DNA of 64,000 bases, taken from Labilithrix sp. GTDB taxonomy: Bacteria; Myxococcota_A; Polyangia; Polyangiales; Polyangiaceae. This document shows, in pieces, positions 2,066 to 47,501 of the stretch (positions are counted from its first letter, which is position 1; every line of letters starts with the position of its first letter). The position numbers were made by a program, and so were the translations under genes. The stretch spans positions 67,457 to 131,456 of the forward strand of contig JBGAFW010000002.1 in the NCBI GenBank assembly GCA_044227045.1, read 5' to 3'. Below the pieces are notes generated by a model, which worked only from the letters and a program-made list of their open reading frames with translations, did no database searches and was not told the DNA's origin.

Positions 2066-2176
2066 GCGTTCACTTTAGCTGTCCTGCCGGTCCCCGTGCT
2101 ACGAGAGCGTCGTCGGCGCGCAAAGGCGAACCGGCGCGGCGCCGACAGCCCGCGAACGAATAGGGCGAAGAGACAT

Positions 2177-3352
2177 ATGGAACGCATTCAGAAGATCCTC
2201 GCGCACGGCGGCATCGCGTCACGTCGCGCCGCCGAGCAGCTCATCAAAGCGGGTCGCGTGCGCGTGAACGGGCGCGTCGTGACGGAGCTCGGCACCAAGG
2301 CGGATCCTCGTCGCGACCGTGTCGAGGTCGATGGCAAGCGCGTCGTCGCGGAGGACCCGGTCTATGTCGTGCTCCACAAGCCGCGCGGCGTCGTCTCGAC
2401 GATGAACGATCCGGAAGGTCGTCCGACGGTGCAGGAGCTCCTCTCGAGCATCGGCGCACGCGTGTATCCGGTTGGCCGGCTCGATTTTGCGACGAGCGGC
2501 GTCCTCCTCGCGACGAACGACGGCGAGCTCGCCGACGGTCTCCTTCACCCGCGAAAGACCGTGCCGAAGAAGTACGTGCTCAAGGTGAAGGGCATCATGA
2601 GCCCCGAGGACATCGACGCGTGGCGCAAAGGCATCCGCCTCGAAGACGGCATGACGCTGCCGGCAGAGGCGACGCTCATCCGTCACGAAGGTGACAAGAC
2701 GTGGCTCGAGCTGACGATCCGTGAAGGTCGCAACCAGCAGATCCGCCGCATGGGCGAGGCGACGGGCTTTCCGGTCATGCGCCTCGCGCGCGTGTCGTTC
2801 GCCGAGATCTCGGTCGAAGGTCTCGCGCCCGGCCGCTGGCGGCATCTCACGCGCGACGAGCTCATCGATCTGAAGAAGACGTACGGCGTGCCGCGATCGA
2901 TCCCGTCGGCTGGGTCGATCCCGGAGAACCCTTCACGCGCGGCACGCGCACGCGCGATTCAGCCACGCAGCGCCGCGGAGTCGACCGCGGCGAGCTCTTC
3001 TTCTTCTTCGCCGCGCTTTGGCGGCGGATCGCCGGGACGCCGCTCCTACGACGTCACCGACGATTGGGGCGGAGGCGCAGGCCGCGGCTCCACGCGAAAC
3101 GATCGCGCGGGCTCCAGCGGCTCGAGCACCGGCGATCGTCGAGGCGCGAGCCGGAGCAGCGGTGGACGCAGCGGAAGCAGCGATCGCGGCGCGCCGCGCG
3201 CGAGCCGAGGCGGCGCCGTGGGAGGCAGCGAGGAACGTCCGCGCAGCAGCGTCGGCGGCGGTCGCTTTGGTCAATCACGCACGACCGGAACCGGCGGTGG
3301 GATCGGCTCGCGCGAAGAGGCCCCGCGCGTCAAAGGGCGCCGCGGACGCTAG
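2177..3352 (+). CDS. rluB: 23S rRNA pseudouridine synthase RluB, with a long Arg/Gly/Ser-rich C-terminal tail
   Basis: An S4 domain (IASRRAAEQLIKAGRVRVNG). The RsuA/RluB core (LHKPRGVVSTMNDPEGRPTV, YPVGRLDFATSGVLLATNDGEL, GRNQQIRRM). ATG at 2177, in frame with the longer ORF 2096..3352. Confidence 0.85.
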   Translation: MERIQKILAHGGIASRRAAEQLIKAGRVRVNGRVVTELGTKADPRRDRVEVDGKRVVAEDPVYVVLHKPRGVVSTMNDPEGRPTVQELLSSIGARVYPVGRLDFATSGVLLATNDGELADGLLHPRKTVPKKYVLKVKGIMSPEDIDAWRKGIRLEDGMTLPAEATLIRHEGDKTWLELTIREGRNQQIRRMGEATGFPVMRLARVSFAEISVEGLAPGRWRHLTRDELIDLKKTYGVPRSIPSAGSIPENPSRAARARAIQPRSAAESTAASSSSSSPRFGGGSPGRRSYDVTDDWGGGAGRGSTRNDRAGSSGSSTGDRRGASRSSGGRSGSSDRGAPRASRGGAVGGSEERPRSSVGGGRFGQSRTTGTGGGIGSREEAPRVKGRRGR

Positions 3353-4368: not shown

Positions 4369-7300
4369 TCAAGGCGTCGACGTCATCTCGGCCTGCGGTG
4401 ACGCTGTCGCAGCGGCCGGACGGATCTTCGCGAGAGGATCGACGATCGACGCCGGCAGAGACCAGTCGTTCCGGAAGGTGCCCGCCGCGCGAAAGCTCGC
4501 GCCGTTCAGCATCAGCTGACCGCGCGCCGGCGTGATCGATTCGTCCCACACCATGAAGTCGGGGAGCAGCTCGGGCAGCGAGAGGGCGCGCAGCGTGCCG
4601 AGGGTGTCGGCGCCTTCCACCACGACGACGTAGCGATCCTCTCGCGCCGGGTTCGGATGAACGAAGGCGGCGCCGAGCTCCTTTCCGATGATCTTCTCTT
4701 TGCCGATCGTGACGCCGGTGCTGTCGACGTGGATGGGGAAGGGAGCGCCGTTGCTCGTGGCGAGCGCGTCGAGCGCGGCGAGCACCTTGTTCGTGCGCCC
4801 GACGAGGAAGAGCACGCGATCGTGGGCGAGCGGCTCCTTCTTCGCGAGGAACTCCTCGTCGCTCATCACGGGATAGGACATCGGAATGCCGCCGGGTGGG
4901 TTCGCGAAGGCGCGCGCGACCCGCTCGTTGGCGCGCGTCTCGTCCGTGCCGGGCTCTTTGCCGCGCGTTGAATCGTCACCGGCGCCATAGACGAAGAGGA
5001 GCGGCTCGTGAAACGCGTCGCGAAGCGGACCGGCGACGTGACCGCTCTTCACGGGATGGTGCACGGGATGAAACGCGGGGCCCTTCTCCCAAACGCCCGC
5101 GCCGTTTTTGTGGAGGATGACGGGCTCAGCCTCATCGAAGGAGAGGGACGTCCCGTCGGCGCTCACGCTGAGCGTCGCGTGCGGCTCGATCAGCTTGTCG
5201 TCGCGCGTGAGCGTCATCGCGCTCACGCCCGTCGTCGTGAGCGTGATCGCGGACTTGGTCTTCACGCGCGCGTCGACGTCCGCCCAGCCGCCCGTCGCGC
5301 TCGTCGGCTCGCTTAGCTCGTCGATGCGCACCCACGCGCTCGTCCCGTAGCGTGGCTTCATCGTGCGAAAGCGCACGTGCGAAGGATGCGGATCGAGCCG
5401 CTGCGAGAGGAGCCACTTCATCCCCTTCAGATCGGCGTAAGTGACGCCCCACACGTTGTGACCCGCGTCGGGGTGATCGTGCTTGATCGAGTATTTGAGC
5501 TTCTCGTAGCGCTCGATCAAGACGCCGCTGTTCGTCTCGGGGAGATCGCGCGTGCCGTGGATGATCCAGAGCGGGAGGTGCTCGCCGTTCTCCGCCCAAT
5601 ACACGTTCGAGCGCTCTTCGATCGCGAGCTTCTCCCACGGGCGCTTGGGTCGCGGTCCGATGTCGGGCCGGATCATGTAGCTGTGGTAGCCGCACAGCGG
5701 CTCGGCGCTCGAGAAGACGTGCGGGAAATGGAGCGGGATCGACGCGGAGCCGATGCCGCCCATCGACGGACCCGTGATGCTGATCCGCGTGTCGTCGATC
5801 GGGAAGACGCTGCGCGCCCACTGGATCATGTGGAGGACATCGTCCTCGCCGATCTCGCGGTACATCGTGTTGCCGTGGGCGTACGGCGTGATCACGAACG
5901 CGTCTATTACGTTGGGAACCAGTGCCTGGTTCCCAAACCCTCCCGCCGTCGGTGGCGGAACGAGCGGCCGGCGATCTTTCCAGTAGGGCTCCTTCTTCTC
6001 TTCGTCGAGGCCGAAGAGCGCGCGCATCATCGAGATCGGGTAGCTGTTCATCCCGTGAAGGCCAACGACGAGCGGGAGCTTTCGCGTGTCACCTGGCTTG
6101 TAAGAAGGCGGCACGTAGAGCCCAAGCTCGCTCGGCGCGCCATCGAGCGGCGTGACGACGGCGCGGCGCATCATTCCGGTGCGACCTTCGTACGGGTCGA
6201 CGCCCTTCTCGAGGTTGGCCGCGAGCCGATCGATCTCCTTGGCGTCTTCGAGCTGCGCTTCGGCGTCTTGATCGCCGCGCGCGACGAACCGCGCGAGGCG
6301 CTTGACGAGGAAGTGCACCGAGTCGAGCGAGCCCGGCACGAGCCACGGCTCATCGCCTTTGATCTTCGCGAGGGCGCGATCCATCCGCGCGAGCGCCTGC
6401 TCCGACTGCGGGCGCGCGAAGATCGACGACTTGACGACGCGACCGGCGACGTTGGCTTCGAGCGTCGCCGTGCCGCTCCATGGATCGATCGCTGGTAGCG
6501 CGACGACGAGGTCGGTGACGCCCGACGACGTCACCGCCACGGAGCCAGCGCGCACGTCGAACGCCGAGGCCTCGGGGACGCCGGAGAGCTTCACCGAGAC
6601 GGGGAGGGGGACGCCGCGTGGCGCGCCTTCGGGGTAGCGAACGGTGACGAGCGGCCGGTAGCGCGGCGGCGTCGAATGAGCGTCGAACGCGCGATCGACG
6701 ACGAGCCACGACATGCGCGCCGCCAAGGCCTGCGCGTCGGTCGCGCTCGTCCCCGGAAGCGTCAGGTAGGCGCCGATCGGCGGCGCGAGCGACCCATCGA
6801 CGATCTTCGCGCGGAATCGCCAAGCGCCGTCGCGTTGATGGAGCTTGAGGACGATGTCGTGATCGCCCGCCGTCAGATCGAGCGGGACGATGTCGTCGTC
6901 GTCACGCACGGGCCGCGCGTCGTCGCGTGTGTACACGACCGCGCCATCGACGAAGATGCGAATGCCATCGTCGACGCCGAGCATCAGGTAGTGGCGACCG
7001 GCTCGCTCGACGTGAAGGCGTCCCGCGGCGTACGCGATGAGCTCCGATCCGGTCGCGTCTTCGAGCGTCGTCTTGAGGTCAATCGTGCGGCTGCCATCGC
7101 TGCCGGGATCTTGGCTTGCGCCGCCTCCAAGCAGCGGAGGTCCGGCGGACCCGACGATCCACTTCGCGGGTGGCCTCTGCTTCGTCCCGAGATCGCGGGC
7201 GCCTCCGAACGCGGTCCCGAGTGACGCGGCGATCTTCTTCTCGTCGACGCTGAGCCCTGCCGGCAGGCTTGTGAGCGGCTGCGTGGCGGCGGCGCGAAAG

Positions 7301-7623
7301 GGACCGGCGAGGAGCCATGCGCCGAGGACGCCCGCAGCGGATGGAGCGAGGCGCACCTCCGTGACCGGCGCGCGCGCCTCCTCGTCGAGGCGGGCGATCT
7401 CTGCGGCGCGCTTCGATGCGGGAGCGATCGCGGAGGGAGAGACCGTGCTGGGAGACGACGTTTCGACCGGGAGGTCATCGCCGTCCGCGGCGCTGCTCCG
7501 CTCGGGAGAGTCCGTGCCCGCGCCGAGGAGGCTCAGCAGGAGCCCGAGCGCGAGGACTCCTCCGCTGCCGGCCGATGCGCCGAGCAGCGCACCGACAGGG
7601 AGTGGATAGAGCGCGCGGGTCAC
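4369..7623 (-). CDS. Large secreted multidomain alpha/beta-hydrolase (S9 peptidase or esterase-like), 1084 aa
   Basis: GTG start with a signal peptide. A nucleophile elbow (ITGPSMGGIGS). LPLVVGLHGMNSY and WIIHGTRD are hydrolase-like. Co-directional, 6 nt downstream of the cupredoxin gene, and upstream of the TPM gene. Confidence 0.7.
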   Translation of the reverse strand: MTRALYPLPVGALLGASAGSGGVLALGLLLSLLGAGTDSPERSSAADGDDLPVETSSPSTVSPSAIAPASKRAAEIARLDEEARAPVTEVRLAPSAAGVLGAWLLAGPFRAAATQPLTSLPAGLSVDEKKIAASLGTAFGGARDLGTKQRPPAKWIVGSAGPPLLGGGASQDPGSDGSRTIDLKTTLEDATGSELIAYAAGRLHVERAGRHYLMLGVDDGIRIFVDGAVVYTRDDARPVRDDDDIVPLDLTAGDHDIVLKLHQRDGAWRFRAKIVDGSLAPPIGAYLTLPGTSATDAQALAARMSWLVVDRAFDAHSTPPRYRPLVTVRYPEGAPRGVPLPVSVKLSGVPEASAFDVRAGSVAVTSSGVTDLVVALPAIDPWSGTATLEANVAGRVVKSSIFARPQSEQALARMDRALAKIKGDEPWLVPGSLDSVHFLVKRLARFVARGDQDAEAQLEDAKEIDRLAANLEKGVDPYEGRTGMMRRAVVTPLDGAPSELGLYVPPSYKPGDTRKLPLVVGLHGMNSYPISMMRALFGLDEEKKEPYWKDRRPLVPPPTAGGFGNQALVPNVIDAFVITPYAHGNTMYREIGEDDVLHMIQWARSVFPIDDTRISITGPSMGGIGSASIPLHFPHVFSSAEPLCGYHSYMIRPDIGPRPKRPWEKLAIEERSNVYWAENGEHLPLWIIHGTRDLPETNSGVLIERYEKLKYSIKHDHPDAGHNVWGVTYADLKGMKWLLSQRLDPHPSHVRFRTMKPRYGTSAWVRIDELSEPTSATGGWADVDARVKTKSAITLTTTGVSAMTLTRDDKLIEPHATLSVSADGTSLSFDEAEPVILHKNGAGVWEKGPAFHPVHHPVKSGHVAGPLRDAFHEPLLFVYGAGDDSTRGKEPGTDETRANERVARAFANPPGGIPMSYPVMSDEEFLAKKEPLAHDRVLFLVGRTNKVLAALDALATSNGAPFPIHVDSTGVTIGKEKIIGKELGAAFVHPNPAREDRYVVVVEGADTLGTLRALSLPELLPDFMVWDESITPARGQLMLNGASFRAAGTFRNDWSLPASIVDPLAKIRPAAATASPQAEMTSTP

Positions 7624-7629
7624 GTCTTC

Positions 7630-8004
7630 TTATTGAACGGTGATGGTACCGGTCATGCCGGCCGTGCAGTGGGGCTCGCAGTAGTACTTAACGACCTGGG
7701 CCTTGTCGGCCTTCCACTCGAACGTACCGCCGGCCTGCGCCGCGCCGCTCCGAAAGATTCCGTCGCCTTGACCGCACGTCGCGCCGGAGACGACGTTGTG
7801 GGCGCCGCCTGCCCAGGTCCAGCGCACCGTCTGACCCACCTTGACCGTGACGTCCTTCGGCGTGAACGTGTTGCCGTTCGCGCCGCCGACCTGAACGTTC
7901 ACCACCTGCGTATCGTCCGCCGGCGTCGTGTCTTCGCTGCTGCATGCGGGAACGAGCACGAATCCCGCGAGCGCCATTCCGAGTCCAAGCAAGATCTTCT
8001 TCAT
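7630..8004 (-). CDS. Small blue-copper (cupredoxin/plastocyanin-like) lipoprotein
   Basis: An internal start (MKKILLGLGMALAGFVLVPAC, a lipobox) with GGAG upstream. Cu-ligand motifs (YYCEPHCTAGMTG, GAHNVV). The longer ORF 7630..8253 has a non-coding-looking N-terminal extension. Confidence 0.7.
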   Translation of the reverse strand: MKKILLGLGMALAGFVLVPACSSEDTTPADDTQVVNVQVGGANGNTFTPKDVTVKVGQTVRWTWAGGAHNVVSGATCGQGDGIFRSGAAQAGGTFEWKADKAQVVKYYCEPHCTAGMTGTITVQ

Positions 8005-32092: not shown

Positions 32093-32719
32093 TCAGGCCG
32101 CCGTAGAATACGTGTCGAGCTCGCGCTTTTCGAGCAGTGTTCGAAGGCGCGTACGTGCTCGGTGAAGGCGCGACCGCACAGCGCTCTCTGTGATCGAGAG
32201 GCGATCGGCGATCTCCTGAAGGCCGAGGTCCATGTGGTAGTGGGCGATGACGACGTCGCGGTAGTCCTCGGGGAGCTCGCCGAGCGCATCGCGCACCTTT
32301 TCGTCACGCTCGCGCGCCGTCACACCAAGGTCGGCGTCGACGTCGGTGTCGTTCATCGCCGGGAGCATCGCGAGCTCCTCCCAATCGAGCCCCTCGATGA
32401 AGCGGGCGCGATGACGACGGCGTGACCGCATGAGCATGAGGGCTTCGTTCGCAGTGACGCGGAAGAGCCAGGTCGAAAAGCTCGCTTCGGCGCGGAAAGA
32501 CCCGAGACGCCGGACGATTTGCATCATCGTAGCTTGGAGGAGGTCGCGGCGATCTTCGTCACTCACCGGGTAGCGCAGGAGCTGTCGCTCGACGTGCGGC
32601 TTGATCGTCTTCAGCACATGATCGAGGGCCGTGCTGTCACCGGAGACCGCTGCATCGAGGATGTCACGCTGGATTACGAAGGCCATTCGAACGAGTCCTT
32701 TCGAGGTGAGAGGCTCCAT
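32093..32719 (-). CDS. ECF-family sigma factor (start uncertain: 32719 or 32686)
   Basis: Region 2 (LLQATMMQIVRRLGSFRAEASFSTWLFRVTANEAL) and region 4 (DYRDVVIAHYHMDLGLQEIADRLSITESAVRSRLHRAR). Confidence 0.7.
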   Translation of the reverse strand: MEPLTSKGLVRMAFVIQRDILDAAVSGDSTALDHVLKTIKPHVERQLLRYPVSDEDRRDLLQATMMQIVRRLGSFRAEASFSTWLFRVTANEALMLMRSRRRHRARFIEGLDWEELAMLPAMNDTDVDADLGVTARERDEKVRDALGELPEDYRDVVIAHYHMDLGLQEIADRLSITESAVRSRLHRARTRLRTLLEKRELDTYSTAA

Positions 32720-33076
32720 TGCGATGGTCATGCCGTCGACCCAAGGGCGGGTCATGGACGGACGGGCTGCCAAATCCCCCAATGATTTTCGCGGCCGTCT
32801 CCACGCCTGCGGTTGTTTGGGCCTGTAGGGATTCCGACAGCTGAAGCCGGTCCCAACAGACAGGTCGATGTGCGTTCCGACAAATCGACCGCACCGGTTT
32901 TTTTTTGGTCGGACGCCTTCCGCGGAGCCACGCGATGCTTAGGGCACGAGAGCGCTGCGGGCGCACGAGGTGCCACCTCGATGATGGATGTGCGCCGGCC
33001 GCGGTAGAACCTTCTCGTTTTCTCTCGGTTTTCTTGCTTGGAGGCGGCCCTCCACCAACGCTACGCTTTGGCTCTG

Positions 33077-34678
33077 ATGGCGGCGAAGCTCGCGCGATCG
33101 CAGCGGACTGCTACGCGGGGATCCATCCCCGACGTGGGACGGTCGACGCTCAAGGTCGGTGACCTGCTCGCCAGCAAGTACCGCGTCGAGCGCGTGCTCG
33201 GCGAAGGCGGCATGGGCGTGGTTGTCGAAGCCTATCACGAGCTTCTCGATCAACGCGTCGCGGTCAAGCTCCTCTACCAAGACATCGCCGACCGTGAAGC
33301 GCAGTCGCGCCTCCTGCTCGAAGCGCGCTCCGCGGCGAAGCTCCAGAGCGATCACGTCGCGCGCGTCATCGACGTCGACGTCGGGCCGGACGGATTGCCC
33401 TTCATTGTCATGGAGCTGCTCGAGGGCTCTGATCTCTGCCAGATCGCCGATGCGCGCGGTGCGCTGCCTCGATGGTTGGTTGTAGATTACATGCTTCAGG
33501 CGCTCGAGGGGCTCGCGCACGCGCATGGTCGCCAGATCATCCATCGCGATCTGAAGCCGTCGAATCTCTTCCTCACCAACCGCCCGGACGGAACGCAGAT
33601 CATCAAGATCCTCGACTTCGGGATCTCGAAGTCTTCGGGTGATCCGGGAGATCGAAGGCAAGCGCAGCTCACCGGCGGGCGCAGCGTCCTCGGCTCGCCG
33701 CCGTACATGTCACCGGAGCAGGTACGAAGCCCGAAGAGCGTCGATCACCGCACGGACATCTGGTCGCTCGGGATCTGCATGTACGAGCTCCTTACGAACT
33801 CGATGCCGTTCGGCGGCGACGAGCTCCAAGAGACGTTCGCGCAGATCCTCGAGAAGGAGCCCACGCCCATTCGTGCGCTCGTCACGGGCGTCCCGGAAGG
33901 CCTCGAGCAGGTCGTGATGAAGTGCCTCGCCAAGAACCGCGAGAATCGCTTCAGCGACGTGGGCGAGCTCGCCAAGGCGATCGTTCCGTACGGCTCGGGC
34001 ACGTGGATTCAATCGGCCGATCGCGTGCAAGCGACGCTCGCGCGTGCGCTGATGGAAGACCTCACGAGCGGCACGCGTCTCCGCGGACCGTCCGCGCCCT
34101 CGTCCGATCGCATCCCGATCCCGTCGTCGCGTCGCCTCGACTCGATGCAGCCCGAGCTCACCGGCACAGCGAGCACCGTCGCGCGCCGCTTTACCGTCTT
34201 CGAGTCGAAGAAGCGCTGGATCCTCGGCGTCGCGGCCGTCTCGGCGCTCGCAGGTCTCGGGCTCATCGGCGTCGGCGTCATGAAGTCCCAAGCGGTCGCG
34301 CCGGGCGCCGAGCTCGATCCGAGCGCGTCGGGTCGCCCGAGCGAGCCGCCGGCCGCCGCGGTCGATCCGTCGACCGTCACGACCGTCACGCCTACGCCCA
34401 CGGCTCCGAGCCAGCCGGCGATGGTCTCCGTCGAGAACGATCTGCCTTCGATGCCCACGAACGCGACCGGCACGGTGATCGGCGCGTCGTCCCCAGGCAC
34501 GAACACGCCCGCCGCCGCGACAGGCTCGGCGAAGCGCGGAGGCGCGGCTCCCACGCTCCGTGCTCCGCCGCCTCCCACGACGAAGAAGCCAAGCAGCAGC
34601 GGAGCGACACCGTCTGCCGCGGGTGGCTCGAAGCCTGGCTTGCCACCAGGTCTTCCGCAAAATCGCTCGGGTCAATGA
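33077..34678 (+). CDS. Ser/Thr protein kinase
   Basis: GEGGMGVVVEA, VAVKLL, IIHRDLKPSNLFL, DFGISK, SPEQ. Pro/Thr/Ala-rich C-terminus. The ATG at 33077 (MAAKLARSQ) is the first in-frame ATG. Confidence 0.8.
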   Translation: MAAKLARSQRTATRGSIPDVGRSTLKVGDLLASKYRVERVLGEGGMGVVVEAYHELLDQRVAVKLLYQDIADREAQSRLLLEARSAAKLQSDHVARVIDVDVGPDGLPFIVMELLEGSDLCQIADARGALPRWLVVDYMLQALEGLAHAHGRQIIHRDLKPSNLFLTNRPDGTQIIKILDFGISKSSGDPGDRRQAQLTGGRSVLGSPPYMSPEQVRSPKSVDHRTDIWSLGICMYELLTNSMPFGGDELQETFAQILEKEPTPIRALVTGVPEGLEQVVMKCLAKNRENRFSDVGELAKAIVPYGSGTWIQSADRVQATLARALMEDLTSGTRLRGPSAPSSDRIPIPSSRRLDSMQPELTGTASTVARRFTVFESKKRWILGVAAVSALAGLGLIGVGVMKSQAVAPGAELDPSASGRPSEPPAAAVDPSTVTTVTPTPTAPSQPAMVSVENDLPSMPTNATGTVIGASSPGTNTPAAATGSAKRGGAAPTLRAPPPPTTKKPSSSGATPSAAGGSKPGLPPGLPQNRSGQ

Positions 34679-35709
34679 GATCTCTCGCGCGGACGCTCAC
34701 CCTCGCCGCTGTCTCCTCGTCTCTGATCCTCGGTAGCGGCGTCGTACACGCGCAGGACAAGGATCAAGACGCCGAGCGCCTCTTTCGTGAGGGGCAGAAG
34801 CTCATGGAAGAGCGGCGCTACGGCGACGCGTGCCCGAAGTTCGAGGCGGCGTACCGGAAGGATCAGCAGCTCGGCACGTTGCTGAACCTCGCCTACTGCC
34901 ACAAAGAGCAAGGCGCGACGTGGCAGGCGTGGCTCGAGTTCAAGGACGCCGAGATGAAGGCGACCGAGCTACGCCGGAGCGACCGCAAGGAGTTCGCGCG
35001 CCAGAGGATGACGGAGCTCGAGAAGGAGAAGGCGCTCACGCGTATGGTGATCGAGCCCACGACGAAGGTGGAGCTCACCGAGGTGCTCGTCGAAGACCGC
35101 CGCATCCCCGAGGCGGAGAAGAGCGTCCCGTTTGCGGTCGAGCCAGGTCGAGAGCGCAAGGTCACGTTCCGCGCGAAGGGCAAGAAGGACAAGGTCCACT
35201 TCGTCAGCGTGTCGAAGAGCGACAAGCCGATGAAGGTCGCCGTCCCGGACATGGTCGACGAAGAGAAGGCGCCGCCTCCTCCTGCTGTGGTTGATCCGCC
35301 GCCGCCGCCGCCGCCGACCCATCAAGACGTGCGTCCCGTCGAGCCGCCGAAAGAGAAGAGCGACGGCTCGACCCAACGGGTCCTCGCCTATGGCCTCGGC
35401 GGGCTCGCGGTGGTGGGCATCGCGGTCGGGACGGTCGAGGGCCTCGCCGTCATCAACAACCCTTGCTCGAATCAGACACCCGAAGAGAAGGCAGGCACGA
35501 AGCCGTCGCCTTGCACACCCGACGAGAAGTCGAAGGGCGACACCGCATCGCTCGTCGCGACGATCTCGTTCGCGGCTGGCGGCGCCGCGCTCGTGGGCGC
35601 CCTCATCTTGTATTTCACCGCTCCGAGCAGCGACGCGAAGACGGGCAAGGGCTTTCACGTCACGCCAGAGATGGGTGTCGGTTGGGCCGGATTTCGCGGC
35701 GCGTTCTGA
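34675..35709 (+). CDS. Kinase-coupled signal-TPR-beta-domain-TM protein (paralog of the 23663 and 44343 proteins)
   Basis: Its ATG overlaps the kinase stop (ATGA). Signal peptide MRSLARTLTLAAVSSSLILGSGVVHA. TPR-like block (LLNLAYCHKEQGATWQAWLEF). A P(8) run. C-terminal TM segment. Confidence 0.65.
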   Translation: MRSLARTLTLAAVSSSLILGSGVVHAQDKDQDAERLFREGQKLMEERRYGDACPKFEAAYRKDQQLGTLLNLAYCHKEQGATWQAWLEFKDAEMKATELRRSDRKEFARQRMTELEKEKALTRMVIEPTTKVELTEVLVEDRRIPEAEKSVPFAVEPGRERKVTFRAKGKKDKVHFVSVSKSDKPMKVAVPDMVDEEKAPPPPAVVDPPPPPPPTHQDVRPVEPPKEKSDGSTQRVLAYGLGGLAVVGIAVGTVEGLAVINNPCSNQTPEEKAGTKPSPCTPDEKSKGDTASLVATISFAAGGAALVGALILYFTAPSSDAKTGKGFHVTPEMGVGWAGFRGAF

Positions 35710-41410: not shown

Positions 41411-41475
41411 CTTTACAGGCCACTTGATGAGATCCTACAGCCTGTCGCGTCTACGCGTTTCCTACGTTCGTGCTC

Positions 41476-42600
41476 ATGGCCGCAAAGAAACAATTTCCGC
41501 TCGATGCCCTACGAACCGACGGCTGGTTCGAGCGCATCGGTGAGGGCATCGGAAGCTTTCAGGCGCTCTGCGAGATCGTGGGCGAGCGCTTCTTTGCGTT
41601 CTCCATCATCGTCGGCGCGCGCATCACGGCCCTCACGATCGATCGCCGGAGCCCCGATCAGACGCTCGTCGACTTCGTCGTCGGCTCGGCGGAGGCGGAA
41701 GGCGATTTGGAGCCGCAGCGCCTCACCCTCGCGGACTTTCGCCGGCGTCTCGTCGGCGCGTTGCTCGTCGAAGAGGAGAAGCAGGCGCCTGCTCCCGAGC
41801 GCGACACGGACATCGAGGCGATCCAGCTCTTCGTAGGCGTTCGCTACCTCCTCCTCGCGCCGCTCTACGGCTACTCGCTCGTCACGCTCTCGCTCGAAGG
41901 CTCGCAGCCCGAGATCACCGTCCTCCACGACGGCGTCGAAGAGAAGCACGAGCTCGACGCGTTTCGGCTGCGCGTTCGCGCGCACGTCCGCGAGGAGCTC
42001 GATCGCGTCACCACCGGCGCTCGTTCGGCGATCGATCTCTCGAAGGTCGCCGACGCCGAGGCGTGCGCGCTTCGCAAGGAGTGGCCGAAGGTCATCGCGC
42101 TGCTCGGCACCTGGCCGGCGCCGCTCGCGATCTTCCTCCGAACGCCCGAAGGGCAAATGCTCGCGCCCGAAGCGCGCGCCCTGATCGCGAAAGGCCTCGG
42201 CCTCCTCGGCTCCGCGTGCGTCCACGTCGGAGAGATCGAGCAGGCGGAAGAAGTCTTCCGCATCGGCATCCAGTACGCCCAAGAAGGCATGGCCGCCGCC
42301 GAGCTTTTCCGCCGTCTCGGCGAGGCGCTCCTCTTGAACGACCGGCCTGGCGAGGCGATCGGCCCGCTCCGTCGCGCGCTGGCCTTTGGTGGACTACCGC
42401 AAGAGGTGTATCCACCTCTCGCACGTGCGTTCATCCAGCGTGGCCGCTACGTCGCGGCCTTCGCCTGCCTGAAAGACGCCCTCGCCGCGGGCGCCGCCGA
42501 GAAGGATCTCGCCGAAGACATTCGCGAAGTCGAGACGAAGCTCGGTCCTGCGCTGACGGCGTGGAAGGCGAAGCTTCTCACCGTCGACAAAGCCAGCTAG
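41476..42600 (+). CDS. Hypothetical protein with C-terminal TPR-like repeats
   Basis: Coding-like codon usage. No catalytic motif recognised. Confidence 0.5.
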   Translation: MAAKKQFPLDALRTDGWFERIGEGIGSFQALCEIVGERFFAFSIIVGARITALTIDRRSPDQTLVDFVVGSAEAEGDLEPQRLTLADFRRRLVGALLVEEEKQAPAPERDTDIEAIQLFVGVRYLLLAPLYGYSLVTLSLEGSQPEITVLHDGVEEKHELDAFRLRVRAHVREELDRVTTGARSAIDLSKVADAEACALRKEWPKVIALLGTWPAPLAIFLRTPEGQMLAPEARALIAKGLGLLGSACVHVGEIEQAEEVFRIGIQYAQEGMAAAELFRRLGEALLLNDRPGEAIGPLRRALAFGGLPQEVYPPLARAFIQRGRYVAAFACLKDALAAGAAEKDLAEDIREVETKLGPALTAWKAKLLTVDKAS

Positions 42601-42805
42601 CCGACGCGCAAGAGCGCGGACGTGAGCGCACACGGATTCTGGATGTGCGTCGAACCACCCGCGCTTCAAGCGAGAAGCGCGCGTGCGCGCGTGTAGGGCG
42701 CGTCGAGGCAAGGTGAGCGTCGCCACGCGAGAAGCGCGGACGCCGAATCGCTTCGAGATCTCGAGGATTCCCGTCGAAGAGGCGGGCGCAAACTGATACG
42801 TTGGG

Positions 42806-44320
42806 ATGATGGACGTCGACTGCGGTTCCGCTCGAGATCGACTCGGGCGGACACTCGGCGGAAAATATCACCTGAAGGAGGTCCTGGGCGCAGGCGGGAC
42901 CGCCGTCGTGTATCGCGCAGAGTCCATCACCGGCGAGCGCGTCGCGATCAAGGTGCTCCACGATCACCTGAGTCGGAGCGAGGAGGTTTGTCGTCGCTTC
43001 GTTCGTGAAGGCCAGCTCGGCAACGCGCTCGATCATCCGGGCACGGTGCGCGTGCTCGACTACGGCGGCACCGAAGAAGGTTGCCCGTACCTCGTGCTCG
43101 AGCTTCTCGAAGGCGAGTCGCTCGAAGAACGGCGCGTTCGCAGCGGCGGTCGCCTCGAGATGTGGGAGACGCTCGACTTCTGCGATCAGCTCCTCGCGGT
43201 GCTCGAGATCGCGCACGCCAAGAGCATCGTCCATCGCGACATCAAGCCGTCGAACCTCTTCGTGACGAAGACCGGCGTGCTCAAGGTGCTCGACTTCGGC
43301 ATCGCGCGATTCACCGACGACACCTCTTCGGCGACCTCGACGAAGACCGGAACGATGGTCGGGACCCCGGCGTTCATGCCGCCAGAGCAGGCGCTCTCGC
43401 GGCCTCGTGACGTCGACGCGCGCACGGATATCTGGTCCGTCGGCGCGACGCTCTTCACGCTTCTCTCCGGTGAGCACGTGCACATCGCCGAGACGAGCAG
43501 CGAGCATCTCGTCAAGGCCGCCACGCTCCACGCGCGATCGCTCGCGCGCGCGCTGCCCGGCGTCCCTGCCAACGTCGAAGCGCTCGTGGCGCGCTGTCTC
43601 GCGTTCGACAAGAACGAGCGCTGGTCGTCGGCCACGACGATGCGCGTCGAGCTCACGTTCGTCCGCGAAGACCCAGGTCGTCGCATCGGCACCTCGACGT
43701 CACCTCCGCCGGAGCGTTACCCGAGCAACCCGAACATGCCGACGATCATCGGCTCGATGCGCGCGCATCAAGAGGCCGGGACGATCTCTGCGACTGGCAG
43801 CGACCCGCCGGTATCCTCGCGCGGCGCGCGTGCGATCCGAAGCGATCGTCCGAGCGATCACAGCGACGTGAACATGTCGCTCAACTCGATGACGGGCGCC
43901 TACGAGTCGCGTCCGCGTCGCAAATGGCTTCTCCCATTCGCGATCACGTCCACGGTGATGCTCGGGATCATGAGCGTCGCCGTGTTGATGCTCGCCATCC
44001 GGACCACGAACCCGTCCCAGGCCGCCACGGTCGCCGCCGCGAACAGCAACAGCGGCAACACCGGCGCGCCCGCGAACACCGACGTCGTGCCCGCGAACGC
44101 CGACGTCCCGCCCGCGATCGAGCTGCCCGCTGACCCGACCGAGACGGCGCCGAAGACGGCGCAGTCTTCTGTAGCGGCTTCACGACCTGCTTCGACAACC
44201 ACGTCGATAACGCCGATGTCTTCCGCGCGGCCCACGACGACGATCACCGTCACGACGTCACCGAAGAAGCCTGCGCCCGCGAAGGGCCCGTTCAACAAAG
44301 ACCTATATCGCCCGTTCTGA
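42806..44320 (+). CDS. Ser/Thr protein kinase with a C-terminal TM anchor
   Basis: GAGGTAVVYRA, VAIKVL, IVHRDIKPSNLFV, DFGIARF, PPEQ. TM segment (FAITSTVMLGIMSVAVLMLAI). Confidence 0.85.
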   Translation: MMDVDCGSARDRLGRTLGGKYHLKEVLGAGGTAVVYRAESITGERVAIKVLHDHLSRSEEVCRRFVREGQLGNALDHPGTVRVLDYGGTEEGCPYLVLELLEGESLEERRVRSGGRLEMWETLDFCDQLLAVLEIAHAKSIVHRDIKPSNLFVTKTGVLKVLDFGIARFTDDTSSATSTKTGTMVGTPAFMPPEQALSRPRDVDARTDIWSVGATLFTLLSGEHVHIAETSSEHLVKAATLHARSLARALPGVPANVEALVARCLAFDKNERWSSATTMRVELTFVREDPGRRIGTSTSPPPERYPSNPNMPTIIGSMRAHQEAGTISATGSDPPVSSRGARAIRSDRPSDHSDVNMSLNSMTGAYESRPRRKWLLPFAITSTVMLGIMSVAVLMLAIRTTNPSQAATVAAANSNSGNTGAPANTDVVPANADVPPAIELPADPTETAPKTAQSSVAASRPASTTTSITPMSSARPTTTITVTTSPKKPAPAKGPFNKDLYRPF

Positions 44321-44342
44321 CCAGCGGCTGTAGAATGGCTCC

Positions 44343-45326
44343 ATGAGCAAGCGAGTCATCTTCGCGTCCCTCACGATGGGAGCGATGCTCGCGTGGCAGT
44401 CGACGGCGCTCGCAGGCGATCCGGCGGTCGCTCGAGAGCAGCTGAAGATCGGCTACGGCCTCGCGCAGGAAGGCAAATGCGAAGACGCGCTCCCTCACTT
44501 CATCGAGAGCCTTCGCCTCGATCCGAAGGCGATCACGCTCATCAACCTCGCCGACTGCGAAGAGAAGGTCGGCAAGCTCGCTGACGCGCTCGCGCACTGG
44601 GCCGATGCGCGTGCGCGTGCGTCGGCCGAAGGCGCTCGGCCGATCGAAGAAGAGGCGACGAAGCGCGCGGCGGCGCTCGACCCGCGCCTGCCACGCCTCA
44701 CGATCACGCTCGCGCCCGCCGTCCCGAAGGACGCGACGGTCGAACGCGACGGCATCGCGCTCGGGGCTCCGTCGCTCAACATCCCGCTTCCGGTCGACCC
44801 TGGCGCGCACACGCTCGTCGTGAAGGCGAAGGGCCGTGCCGAGAAGACGACGTCGCTCACGATCGCCGAGGGTGAGTCGAAGCGCGTCGAGCTCGACGTG
44901 GGGCCGGCGTCGACCACGGACGTCCCGCCGGCGAAGCCGCCACCCAGCGGCGCCGTCGACCGTCGAGAGCCCGAGAAATCCTCGCTGAGCCCGCTCGTCT
45001 ACATCGGCTTTGGGACGGCGGCGGTGGGCGTCGCCGTCGGTACCGCCACCGGCATCATCGCGCTCGGCAAGGGCAACGACGCCGAGAAGACGTGTCCGAA
45101 TCAGCAATGCGCTTCCCAGGAGGCGCTCGACAAGACGAACGACAACGTCGATTCGGGTCGCACCGTCGGGTGGATCTCGACGATCTCGTTCGGCGTCGCG
45201 GCGGTGGGCGCGGGCGTCGGCATCTACGGCCTCCTCTTCGCGCGTGAGAAGCCCGAGACGTCGACCTCCACCAGCGTCGGTCTCTCGTTCGCGCCGAATG
45301 GAGCGGTCCTTCGAGGGCGCTTCTGA
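44343..45326 (+). CDS. Kinase-coupled signal-TPR-beta-domain-TM protein (paralog of 34675)
   Basis: Signal peptide. TPR-like block (LINLADCEEKVGKLADALAHWADARA). Beta-rich middle. TM near the C-terminus (ISTISFGVAAVGAGVGIYGLLF). Confidence 0.65.
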   Translation: MSKRVIFASLTMGAMLAWQSTALAGDPAVAREQLKIGYGLAQEGKCEDALPHFIESLRLDPKAITLINLADCEEKVGKLADALAHWADARARASAEGARPIEEEATKRAAALDPRLPRLTITLAPAVPKDATVERDGIALGAPSLNIPLPVDPGAHTLVVKAKGRAEKTTSLTIAEGESKRVELDVGPASTTDVPPAKPPPSGAVDRREPEKSSLSPLVYIGFGTAAVGVAVGTATGIIALGKGNDAEKTCPNQQCASQEALDKTNDNVDSGRTVGWISTISFGVAAVGAGVGIYGLLFAREKPETSTSTSVGLSFAPNGAVLRGRF

Positions 45327-46342
45327 TGTCGCCTTCGCCCTCGCGGTCACCCGAGCCGCCCAGCAAAGCTCATCGGACGGTCGGCGCGATCGCCATGACG
45401 ATCGGCGCGCTCGCCGCCTGCAACGCGATCGCGGGGCTCGACGACGACTATGTCCTGGCCGACTCGGGCATCCCGCTTCCGAGCGACAAGGATGGATCGT
45501 CCGGCGGCTCCGAGACGTCCTCGGGGAGCGATGGGTCATCGAGCGGCGACGACGGCAGCGTCGACGGCGGCAAAGACGCGGCGAAGCCACCGGCCGACGC
45601 GAGCGCGCCGCTCGACTGCACGAACCCGCCCGGGCTCGAGCATGGCGACGTCCTCTTCTGCGACAACTTCGAAGACACGACGGGCACGCCGGCGAACAAC
45701 TTCGGCTGGACGAGCACGCTCCAGACCGGCGGCGCGCCGACCGTCGAGGCTGCGATCGGTCGCAACGGAACGCGAGGCCTCCGCGCGAAGGCGACGACGT
45801 CGAGCACGACGAGCGTGTCGACGGGCCTCAAGAAGTCCATCCCGCTCGACTTCCCGCTGAGCTCCACCTACTGGCTAAGCTTCTACTTCTCGGTGAAGAG
45901 CGTCGGGATCGACTACAGCGCGATCGGCGCGATCCAGCTCGCGACCGGCGGCCGTACGAACGCGAGCGAGCACGGCGTGGGCGTCTACAACAACGCGGTG
46001 TCGGTGCAGTGCCCGAACGACGGCGGCCCGCCCTGCTACAACGAGAACGATCAGATTCCCGGTCACAAGCACGACGCGTTTCGCGCCGTGCACGTCGAGA
46101 CCGATCGCTGGTACTACGCCGAGGTGTTCGTGACGCGTAACGCGAACGGCGCCGAATACGCCGGCAAGGTCGTCGTCGACGGGCAGACGATCAAGACGCA
46201 CACGACGTCGGCGCTGCTCGACGGTGGGCCCACCGGCAGCCCCGTCGACTTCATCGTCGGCGTCTTCTATTCGGGCACGACGAACCCGCAGTCGACCGAG
46301 GTCATCATCGATGACGTCGTCGTGCGCCAGCAGCGACCCTGA
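45326..46342 (+). CDS. Secreted lipoprotein, concanavalin/lectin-like
   Basis: Its ATG overlaps the upstream stop (TGATG). Lipobox (AIAMTIGALAAC). Gly/Ser/Asp linker, then a beta-rich domain. Confidence 0.55.
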   Translation: MSPSPSRSPEPPSKAHRTVGAIAMTIGALAACNAIAGLDDDYVLADSGIPLPSDKDGSSGGSETSSGSDGSSSGDDGSVDGGKDAAKPPADASAPLDCTNPPGLEHGDVLFCDNFEDTTGTPANNFGWTSTLQTGGAPTVEAAIGRNGTRGLRAKATTSSTTSVSTGLKKSIPLDFPLSSTYWLSFYFSVKSVGIDYSAIGAIQLATGGRTNASEHGVGVYNNAVSVQCPNDGGPPCYNENDQIPGHKHDAFRAVHVETDRWYYAEVFVTRNANGAEYAGKVVVDGQTIKTHTTSALLDGGPTGSPVDFIVGVFYSGTTNPQSTEVIIDDVVVRQQRP

Positions 46343-46354
46343 CCTCGGTGGCTG

Positions 46355-46930
46355 CTAGGAGCCGTACTTCGCGACGAGACCTTTGGCGCGCTCGACGAAC
46401 GCCGCCATGTGGAAGCGCTCGAAGTCAGCCCACGTCGTGAGCGTCTTCGTGTCCTCGACACGATCGACGAAGACCTTGCCGTCGAGGTGATCGAGCTCGT
46501 GCTGGAAGGTGCCGGCGGTGATGCCTTTGACCTCGAAGTCGAGGTCCTTGCCGTGACGATCCCACGCGCGCACGCGGACGTGCGTGAAGCGCCGCACCTC
46601 GCCGCGGAGATTCGGCACGCTGAGGCACCCTTCGTAGCTCATGAACGTCTCGTCCCCGATCGGCGTCACGACGGGGTTCACGAGGATCGTCAGCGGGTAG
46701 TTCGGCTTGTACGGGTACCGAGGGTTCTTGTTGATCTCGATCGCGGCGATCCGGACGGGGGAGTAGACCTGGTTCGCCGCGAGCCCCGCGCCGTTCGCGT
46801 CGTGCATCGTCTCGACGAGGTCGTCGATGAAGCGCTGCATCGGCTCGCCGAGGAGCTCCTCGCGCGTCACCTCACGCGCGATCTCACGAAGGACAGGGTG
46901 CCCGATTGTCGCAATCTTGAGGATGGCCAT
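46355..46930 (-). CDS. def: Peptide deformylase
   Basis: Motifs GAGLAANQV, EGCLSVP, QHELDHLDG. Confidence 0.9.
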   Translation of the reverse strand: MAILKIATIGHPVLREIAREVTREELLGEPMQRFIDDLVETMHDANGAGLAANQVYSPVRIAAIEINKNPRYPYKPNYPLTILVNPVVTPIGDETFMSYEGCLSVPNLRGEVRRFTHVRVRAWDRHGKDLDFEVKGITAGTFQHELDHLDGKVFVDRVEDTKTLTTWADFERFHMAAFVERAKGLVAKYGS

Positions 46931-47037
46931 CAGCGTCCACCCCAACGTAGCGCATCTGACGGGCGGAGAGCGGGCCCCGGATTCGCGCCTATAAGGGCAT
47001 AAGCGCTGCAATTTCGGGCCGATTCGCCGCGTGGTCG

Positions 47038-47067
47038 TTGACTTCTCACCTCGGTCGGCACTACAAA
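47038..47067 (+). promoter_or_regulatory. Candidate sigma70-type promoter for nuoA (TTGACT-N18-TACAAA)
   Basis: Read directly, about 70 nt upstream of the nuoA ATG in the def/nuoA divergent region. Speculative. Confidence 0.25.
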
Positions 47068-47138
47068 TCGGCAGCGTTTTTCCATGGAAAGCCTGGGATC
47101 TTCCTCAGCTCCTCCAGGGTGATCGCGACCGTAGACAG

Positions 47139-47501
47139 ATGATCCAAACCTATCTGCCGATGTTCTTGATGATCGCCACCGCGATCATCCTGGCTGCGCT
47201 CTTCTTCACCGGCGCGACGTTTCTTGGCGGAAAGCTCGAGAAGACGTCCGAGAAGATGAAGCCGTTCGAGTGCGGCTCCGAGAGCTCCGGAGGAAATCAC
47301 CTCAAGCTCTCCGTGAAGTTCTACCTCACGGCGATCCTCTTCGTCGTCTTCGACATCGAAGCGGTGTTCATCTACCCGTGGGCCATCCAGTTCAAGAATC
47401 TCGGCTGGTTGGGGCTCGGGTCCATGTTCGGGTTCCTCGCGGTGGTCATCGTCGCGCTCGTCTACGTCGTGAAGAAGGGAGCGCTCGAATGGGAGACATG
47501 A
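47139..47501 (+). CDS. nuoA: NADH-quinone oxidoreductase subunit A
   Basis: MIQTYLPMFLMIATAIILAALFF...PFECGSE...FDIEAVFIYPWA is the NuoA/ND3 signature. Confidence 0.9.
   Translation: MIQTYLPMFLMIATAIILAALFFTGATFLGGKLEKTSEKMKPFECGSESSGGNHLKLSVKFYLTAILFVVFDIEAVFIYPWAIQFKNLGWLGLGSMFGFLAVVIVALVYVVKKGALEWET

Follow-up and report, generated by a model that had tools for sequence, protein, structure and literature searches.

A kinase, TPR adaptor and tethered lipoprotein encoded together in Labilithrix: a possible cell-envelope signalling module

A 64-kb window of the genome of the soil myxobacterium Labilithrix sp. (contig JBGAFW010000002.1, positions 67,457 to 131,456; G+C content 64-70%), the window being the whole stretch of DNA that was analysed, encodes a membrane Hanks-type Ser/Thr kinase, an exported TPR protein (gene 2) and a lipoprotein in three consecutive genes. 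The three products may form a cell-envelope signalling module restricted to Labilithrix-type Polyangia, a reading that we put forward tentatively and regard as slightly more doubtful than not. In such a module the lipoprotein would probably serve as a detachable sensor in the cell envelope. The closest association in the locus is that of gene 2 with the lipoprotein gene; a kinase gene lies next to them very often, but not always. The features on which this reading is built are listed below in window coordinates.

42809-44320, plus strand: kinase gene, encoding a membrane Hanks-type Ser/Thr kinase of 503 residues from the conserved start
44294-44317, plus strand: C-terminal peptide of the kinase, N-K-D-L-Y-R-P-F-COOH, conserved among orthologs
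44343-45326, plus strand: gene 2, encoding the proposed exported adaptor
45324-45328, plus strand: TGATG, the stop of gene 2 and the start of the lipoprotein gene with one base in common
45326-46342, plus strand: lipoprotein gene, 338 residues
45419-45460, plus strand: mature N-terminus of the lipoprotein, C-N-A-I-A-G-L-D-D-D-Y-V-L-A, a conserved motif
45461-45616, plus strand: Gly/Ser/Asp tether of the lipoprotein, about residues 46-97, disordered in the model
45617-46339, plus strand: concanavalin A (ConA)-like beta-jelly-roll domain with the conserved pair Cys98/Cys112

Gene content and predicted products

Three open reading frames (ORFs) were found on the plus strand (42806-44320, 44343-45326 and 45326-46342), in agreement with the three-gene content given in a preliminary description of this DNA. 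The kinase start placed there at 42806 is corrected to the second ATG, at 42809, which is the conserved start since MDVDCGSARD opens all orthologs. The TGA of gene 2 (45324-45326) shares one base with the ATG of the lipoprotein gene (45326-45328), and the resulting TGATG junction is present in nine of the 11 related loci examined. A Shine-Dalgarno-like run, GAGGG, lies within the 3' end of gene 2 ahead of the lipoprotein start. From the conserved overlap and the GAGGG run it is likely that gene 2 and the lipoprotein gene are tightly coupled in translation. Overlapping stop and start codons and tight coupling had been described for all three genes; neither extends to the junction of the kinase gene with gene 2, where a 22-nt gap (17-59 nt in relatives) with a conserved TAGAAT separates stop from start. 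The module is bordered by the gene for a TPR protein of ~376 residues on one side and by def on the other. No sigma factor gene adjoins the three genes, and the module is not an ECF43-like pair of an extracytoplasmic function (ECF) sigma factor and a Ser/Thr kinase.

The first gene encodes the kinase, which matches Pkinase (PF00069) over residues 21-278 with 150.6 bits against a cutoff of 31.7 (E 7e-44) and carries the catalytic motifs VAIK at residue 46, HRD at 143 and DFG at 163, with PPE in place of APE. The score above the gathering cutoff and these motifs assign it to the Hanks-type Ser/Thr kinases, and it is apparently active. A single transmembrane segment (residues 374-402 in ORF numbering) leaves the kinase domain in the cytoplasm. 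The periplasmic part is a Pro/Thr/Ala/Ser tail of ~100 residues with no recognisable domain, which is wholly different between orthologs and probably disordered. With this hypervariable tail as its only ectodomain, the kinase would be unable to sense a ligand by itself. The end of the tail is conserved: [RN][KR]D[LV]YRPF forms the C-terminus in the nine sequences compared, including that of the differently located relative L025, and the kinase of the relative L027 ends in the variant GDIYKPF. The best NCBIfam match is NF033483, the PASTA kinase family, at 247 bits against a cutoff of 450 and covering only the kinase and juxtamembrane part; no PASTA repeats were found in the Pfam scan of the kinase, which does not qualify for this family.

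The next gene encodes a protein that is proposed, from structural modelling, to be a membrane-anchored periplasmic adaptor, and more than 254 homologs of it were found. The AlphaFold2 model (pLDDT 80 overall and >92 in the TPR and sandwich) places in order a signal helix, a TPR domain at residues 27-115, a beta sandwich at residues 118-184, a Pro-rich disordered linker, a helical hairpin at residues 217-302 and a short C-terminal hairpin. The helical hairpin carries two hydrophobic segments and a CPxxxC at its tip, and the protein ends in LRGRF (LRG[RST]F among homologs). A search with the family profile reached consensus TPR proteins at an E of 1e-10; the Pfam match of the single sequence lies below the gathering score (TPR_12, 22 bits versus 30.1). 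The model superposes on CTPR3 and other structures, which identifies the N-terminal domain as a TPR repeat. Foldseek analysis of this domain returned peptide-binding modules as the nearest structures (CTPR3/Hsp90 peptide, CHIP, RPAP3, PcrH), and the sandwich was closest to 6hif_Y and to transthyretin/carboxypeptidase-regulatory-like domains. Gene 2 of the window has no match to PF08308 (PEGA) and reaches CarboxypepD_reg only at 0.047, and some orthologs have a precomputed PF08308 match. Both Cys residues of the CPxxxC (residues 251-256) are invariant or nearly so among 37 homologs, and simple topology rules predict that the tip lies on the cytoplasmic side, where the pair may bind a metal, act in redox chemistry or touch the kinase.

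The final gene encodes the lipoprotein. Its signal peptide consists of R17, a hydrophobic region at residues 18-31 and the lipobox L-A-A-C at residues 29-32 (45410-45421), so the basic n-region, hydrophobic region and lipobox of a lipoprotein are all present. The LAAC lipobox, the long Gly/Ser/Asp linker and the concanavalin-like beta domain had each been named in the preliminary description, and all three are borne out, the last at the level of the fold. In the AlphaFold2 model, disorder extends to about residue 93 and is followed by a beta sandwich at pLDDT 70-90; structure comparison identifies a two-sheet ConA-like beta-jelly roll, which is the lectin/glucanase fold. The nearest folds are the polysaccharide lyase (PL) family PL20 glucuronan lyase (score 14.4), PL7 alginate lyase (13.9), the X122 domain (13.7), ulvan lyase (13.6), the lectin domain of the Vibrio cholerae sialidase (13.6) and legume lectins (about 11), with 9-16% sequence identity to the lipoprotein. 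Whether the domain is lectin-like or glycoside-hydrolase-like, the question that structure prediction was to address, is not distinguished by this fold; the X122 fold serves hydrolases, lyases and lectins alike, and X122 itself has no detectable activity (PMC10916295).

Profile searches gave the lipoprotein no family name. It has no Pfam or NCBIfam match, 30 diverse relatives have none except for two weak Laminin_G_3 matches, and a PDB sequence search with the lipoprotein profile returned nothing even at an E of 10. No peptidoglycan-binding domain was found in the lipoprotein, nor were the profile match and the metal- and sugar-binding loops of legume lectins and LamG domains. The sensor bound to peptidoglycan or polysaccharide that the preliminary description suggested is therefore a plausible role at most. 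A hidden Markov model search of 1.84 billion representatives yielded 244 lipoprotein clusters, all of 250-340 residues, and judged by these matches the lipoprotein is a real, uniform and unnamed family.

Residue conservation was counted over 148 family representatives. Of these, 145 have the lipobox Cys (131 show a lipobox-like pattern) and 147 have both Cys98 and Cys112, consistent with a protein that is exported and forms a disulfide. Asp329 and Gly312 are each conserved in 146 representatives, Gly217 and Phe115 in 144 and Trp262 in 133. Moderate conservation is seen at position 150 (basic in 97; Arg in the window), Y197 (110), Y221 (96), H/Y263 (121) and position 271 (basic in 118; Arg in the window), and these residues could line a sugar site. 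The catalytic motifs of PL7 are R..E.R, Q-I-H and Y-F-K-A-G-x-Y-x-Q. Membership of PL7 was rejected because the Q-I-H motif is absent, Gln204 being present in only 42 of the 148 representatives and never with a conserved His after it. The stretches RGLRA, IGAIQL and GVxxY were rejected as PL7 catalytic motifs on family-wide conservation, and none of 30 members matches Alginate_lyase2. The similarity obtained to the PL20, PL36 and PL14 lyases and to X122/Cip1 is at the fold level only.

Among very divergent members, the best-conserved stretch of the lipoprotein is C-N-A-I-[SA]-G-L-D-x-D-Y-x-L-A, directly at the mature N-terminus. The CNAIxGLDxDY motif is confined to the lipoprotein family in the ORFs of the window and of 221 kb of related loci, and its absence from the other ORFs leaves no support for a general sorting signal of the organism. 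The residue at position +2 is Asn in the window and mostly Asn, Ser or Thr family-wide, never Lys or Asp. In Myxococcus xanthus, Lys at +2 marks the retention of lipoproteins in the inner membrane (PMC3222651). The lipoprotein is predicted to reside in the outer membrane, as its Asn at +2 argues against inner-membrane retention by this rule.

Transcription units and conservation across relatives

Comparison of the loci revealed promoter-like boxes ahead of both the kinase gene and gene 2.

42773-42802, plus strand: promoter-like elements of the kinase gene, GTCGAA at 42773-42778, an 18-nt spacer and an extended -10-like TGATACGTT at 42794-42802 that ends 6 nt before the ATG at 42809
44331-44336, plus strand: TAGAAT, a -10-like box 6 nt upstream of the gene 2 ATG and a candidate internal promoter

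The sequence TGnTA(C/G)GTT lies 6-7 nt ahead of the conserved kinase start in nine loci, and the elements upstream of the kinase gene are a putative promoter. TAGAAT stands 6-8 nt before the gene 2 ATG wherever a kinase gene precedes gene 2, despite the 17-59 nt range of the spacer. It occurs once per 9-15 kb locus, at the spacer only, and twice in the 64-kb window. Because this conserved -10-like box sits 6 nt before the ATG, it is probably the own promoter of gene 2 and the lipoprotein gene, giving a leaderless mRNA. The locus would then consist of two transcription units, the kinase gene alone and gene 2 with the lipoprotein gene, between which read-through is possible. Independent promoters or terminators between the genes had been named beforehand as evidence that would speak against a coupled module; the promoter-like TAGAAT is of this kind, and no terminator-like site was found between the three genes. 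The terminator-like sites all lie inside ORFs in a number equal to chance and were rejected as real terminators. A sigma-70 consensus scan found no promoter because it requires a good -35, and the -10-like boxes are visible only by comparison of the loci. An Rfam scan of 42000-47200 identified no RNA family.

A TACGTT box (41463-41468) is also found 7 nt before the ATG (41476) of the upstream gene for the ~376-residue protein. With it, TAnnnT boxes (TACGTT and TAGAAT at 42797-42802, 44331-44336 and 41463-41468) stand 6-8 nt upstream of several conserved ATGs. In the window and most loci, inspection by eye showed no evident Shine-Dalgarno sequence in the stretch from box to ATG; L025 has GAGGG there. 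This arrangement suggests that leaderless mRNAs may be common in this organism.

The nearest relatives of the module are found in metagenome-assembled genomes labelled Labilithrix. In every Labilithrix-like locus the gene order is TPR, TPR, DUF2400, the ~376-residue protein, kinase, gene 2, lipoprotein, def on the opposite strand and nuoA-D. Identity to the window is 95-97% for the ~376-residue protein, 92-94% for NuoD, 77-82% for Def, 63-67% for the kinase, 52-62% for gene 2 and 25-39% for the lipoprotein. In every pairwise comparison, the lipoprotein gene has diverged more than any other in the locus. The ~376-residue protein (41476-42600, plus strand, with a conserved start ATG at 41476) exceeds NuoD in identity, an unusually high degree of conservation for a protein that has no annotation. 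Its N-terminal part is unknown and its C-terminal part has weak TPR matches.

The lipoprotein gene is duplicated in three relatives. Two to four tandem paralogs with 24-28% identity to the window lie at L007 3025-8918 (three to four copies and a second gene 2), L014 5046-7942 and L027 1931-3648. The CNAIxGLDxDY motif is kept only by the tandem copy that overlaps gene 2, and the extra, non-overlapping paralogs are without it. Comparison of the beta domain with that of a very close relative, L026 (dS about 0.1), gave three nonsynonymous and 14 synonymous changes (dN/dS 0.066), which points to a constrained, functional domain. Episodic change, the differential loss of ancient tandem copies or a combination of the two lies behind the large divergence of the lipoprotein.

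A locus search with an eight-sequence alignment returned six genome and seven metagenome loci, all in the same context. A profile search of the protein database with a 30-sequence alignment gave seven matches, and low-complexity words of the linker probably swamped the candidates. Back-translated peptide patterns (mainly ACN[AS][IL][SA]GLD) matched 187 GTDB and 575 metagenome stretches, among which tblastn confirmed six and seven relatives respectively; the rest are very diverged members or other proteins with the N-terminal motif.

As most of the synteny is inherited, divergent members were looked up. In L025 (P0257, 25% lipoprotein identity) the trio lies in a different context, between FtsJ/MFS/Rce1 genes and UbiA. 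L027 (P0277, 24% identity) has kinase, gene 2 and lipoprotein genes with the TGATG junction and a second lipoprotein paralog. The preliminary description would have been contradicted by lipoprotein homologs that are never linked to a kinase elsewhere; homologs of 24-31% identity still have gene 2 and a kinase gene ahead of them, once in a different context (L025, L027).

Two genes beside gene 2 or the lipoprotein gene in relatives are of separate interest. In L024, a SpoIIE/PP2C-like phosphatase gene (7066-7950, minus strand) is convergent with the lipoprotein gene and directly downstream of it, and may be another link to Ser/Thr phospho-signalling. In L018, of the 'Myxococcales bacterium 68-20' lineage, a 636-residue reverse transcriptase/maturase with YADD (1245-3155), assigned by eye to group II introns, lies directly upstream of gene 2 at the position that the kinase gene has in the other loci. 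A diversity-generating retroelement was dismissed as the cause of the variability, the only reverse transcriptase seen being this group II intron type in one relative, with none in the window region.

The window holds a second arrangement of related genes, here called module 1, of which the locus described above (module 2) had been presented as a second copy.

32093-32782, minus strand: sigma-factor-like ORF of module 1, divergent, judged by eye from its translation to be of ECF type
33038-34678: kinase gene of module 1
34675-35709: paralog of gene 2 in module 1, its product ending in RGxF

Module 1 also has a kinase gene followed by a paralog with TPR, beta and membrane-hairpin parts ending in RGxF, and the paralogy of gene 2 with 34675-35709 is confirmed at 25% identity (E 4e-14). 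The two kinases are 34% identical, so the proteins of the modules share only 25-34%. Module 1 differs in having the divergent sigma-factor-like ORF and no lipoprotein gene, and the lipoprotein gene is, as described earlier, an addition in module 2. Its kinase gene and gene 2 paralog overlap as ATGA (34675-34678), unlike those of module 2. The arrangement of the sigma-like ORF and the kinase gene in module 1 resembles sigma/kinase pairs.

Weighing of the proposed mechanism

The signalling reading draws on gene structures, folds, motifs, synteny and selection, all of which were observed; from these we infer the contacts, the ligand class and the direction of signalling. Gene 2 and the lipoprotein would form an obligatory core, probably with its own leaderless promoter, and the kinase would be a separately promoted, constantly adjacent partner. 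Through the TGATG junction the lipoprotein would be made in fixed proportion with gene 2, and its tether of ~50 residues would carry the jelly-roll head, which may bind a glycan of the envelope, the matrix or prey. The adaptor may hold the lipoprotein by its N-terminal peptide and/or the kinase by its C-terminal peptide on the TPR groove, and ligand-dependent changes in the complex would alter the activity of the kinase and the phosphorylation of its cytoplasmic targets. The invariance of the DLYRPF peptide of the kinase and the CNAIxGLDxDY peptide of the lipoprotein suggests such peptide docking on the TPR adaptor. The divergence and tandem duplication of the lipoprotein are as expected of a specificity-determining head, and this fast-changing, duplicating head would set the ligand specificity. 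In a bolder and unlikely form of the proposal, which would be a new kind of input to a bacterial Hanks-type kinase, the disordered kinase tail would be a fishing line whose DLYRPF end is captured by the TPR adaptor. The adaptor would hold interchangeable, quickly diversifying lectin-like heads by their N-terminal peptide, and specificity could evolve and undergo tandem duplication with the kinase left unchanged.

Several observations weigh against a signalling module. With a conserved -10-like box between the kinase gene and gene 2, expression of the three genes is not necessarily joint. L024 (P0161) has gene 2 and the lipoprotein gene with no kinase gene in the 5 kb upstream, and P0263 (23% identity) lies between acyl-CoA dehydrogenase and ABC ATPase genes with neither gene 2 nor a kinase gene adjoining. 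In the lineage of 'Myxococcales bacterium 68-20' (L018), the group II intron noted above lies upstream of gene 2. The kinase of module 1 ends in QNRSGQ, without the DLYRPF C-terminus. The ConA-like fold does not tell binding from catalysis (PMC10916295). Finally, most of the trio loci are orthologous, so their synteny is mostly inheritance and not independent evidence.

The ambiguity of the fold leads to one alternative, in which the tethered lipoprotein is an enzyme with a beta-jelly-roll fold, a polysaccharide lyase or a hydrolase, whose substrate is an acidic exopolysaccharide or a glycan of prey. Gene 2 would then be its membrane partner or chaperone, and the kinase would at most regulate it. 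The basic and aromatic positions R150, Y197, Y221, H/Y263 and R271 are fairly conserved and of the residue types that lyases use. We nevertheless think an enzyme improbable, given that no PL, glycoside hydrolase or PDB family is matched at the sequence level, that the PL7-like Q-I-H motif is absent (Gln204 in 42 of 148), that X122 domains with this fold have no detectable activity (PMC10916295) and that the divergence would be extreme for an enzyme of fixed substrate. About equally improbable is that gene 2 and the lipoprotein are a self-contained envelope pair with a structural, transport or assembly role, next to which the kinase gene is kept as inherited synteny without coupling. The separate -10-like box before gene 2, the pair with no kinase gene in the 5 kb upstream in L024 and the intron that precedes gene 2 in one lineage would all fit such a pair, and linkage by descent is expected where the neighbourhood (DUF2400, the ~376-residue protein, def, nuo) is syntenic throughout. 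Uncoupled adjacency sits less well with L025, where the trio is kept and both flanks differ, or with the pairing of gene 2 paralogs with a kinase gene twice in the window, once with the ATGA overlap at 34675-34678. A kinase without a sensor domain that keeps an invariant periplasmic C-terminal peptide also needs a partner for it.

The divergence of the lipoprotein could also be that of a variable recognition or decoy protein (kin, prey or phage-receptor-like) in an arms race, to which the kinase and gene 2 are incidental. The lipoprotein is always the most diverged gene, at 25-39% identity compared with 92-94% for NuoD and 77-82% for Def, and tandem paralogs exist in L007, L014 and L027. Purifying selection is strong in the only close pair, however, with three nonsynonymous versus 14 synonymous changes in the beta domain, no evidence places the lipoprotein at the surface, and a good part of the divergence seen could come from the differential loss of ancient tandem copies; we regard this alternative as very unlikely.

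Relation to known systems and significance

The proposed signalling module resembles systems in which a lipid-anchored periplasmic protein supplies the input of an inner-membrane kinase whose own ligand-binding domain is small or missing, namely RcsF-IgaA/RcsCD, NlpE-CpxA and QseG-QseE (for QseG/QseE, PMC6075780). The RcsF, NlpE and QseG genes often adjoin the kinase gene, as the lipoprotein locus does here. The kinases of those systems are histidine kinases, in contrast to the Hanks-type Ser/Thr kinase of the window. RcsF acts through an inner-membrane intermediary, IgaA. This role parallels the one proposed for gene 2, with the difference that a TPR-PEGA-hairpin protein would be the intermediary and a ConA-like jelly roll would form the head. 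The lipoprotein has no NCBIfam or Pfam match that would make it a homolog of RcsF, NlpE or QseG. The two kinds of system are unrelated in sequence and fold, and the resemblance would be functional only; by this analogy, the module is an analogue and not a member of the accessory-lipoprotein input systems.

The PASTA kinases (PknB/Stk1/PrkC) are likewise single-pass membrane Hanks kinases and are thought to monitor envelope glycans. They contain PASTA repeats, whereas the ectodomain of the window kinase is a low-complexity tail, and a glycan-binding module would have to come in trans. The lyases that share the fold of the lipoprotein (PL20 TrGL 2zzj, PL7, PL36 Aly36B, PL14 vAL-1 and CAZy X122/Cip1) are 9-16% identical to it with no profile-level similarity. 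The characteristic PL7 motifs are not conserved here, and the lipoprotein differs further in its lipid anchor with a long tether and in the genes that accompany it, those of a TPR protein and a kinase. The N-terminal domain of gene 2 is similar in fold and size to three-TPR modules (Hop TPR1/2A, CHIP, RPAP3, PcrH). Modules of this type bind short, often C-terminal, peptides, in keeping with the pair of short conserved peptides in this module. The gene 2 domain is unlike them in being periplasmic and in continuing into a PEGA-like sandwich and a membrane hairpin.

A literature search for a PEGA, TPR or lipoprotein partner of Hanks kinases found nothing relevant. The trio is undescribed; kinase input through an accessory lipoprotein is known in kind, and here it would come from two unnamed families in one myxobacterial lineage. 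These families, the TPR-PEGA-hairpin adaptor and the tethered jelly-roll lipoprotein, are absent from Pfam and NCBIfam, and comparison of the loci also yields evidence that leaderless promoters exist in this group. The finding would be an ordinary one if the module is only an enzyme and its neighbours. Myxobacteria have hundreds of Ser/Thr kinases, most without a known input signal and many without a recognisable sensor domain. If the signalling reading is true, the conserved set of kinase, adaptor and lipoprotein would be a concrete route by which such kinases receive their input in trans.

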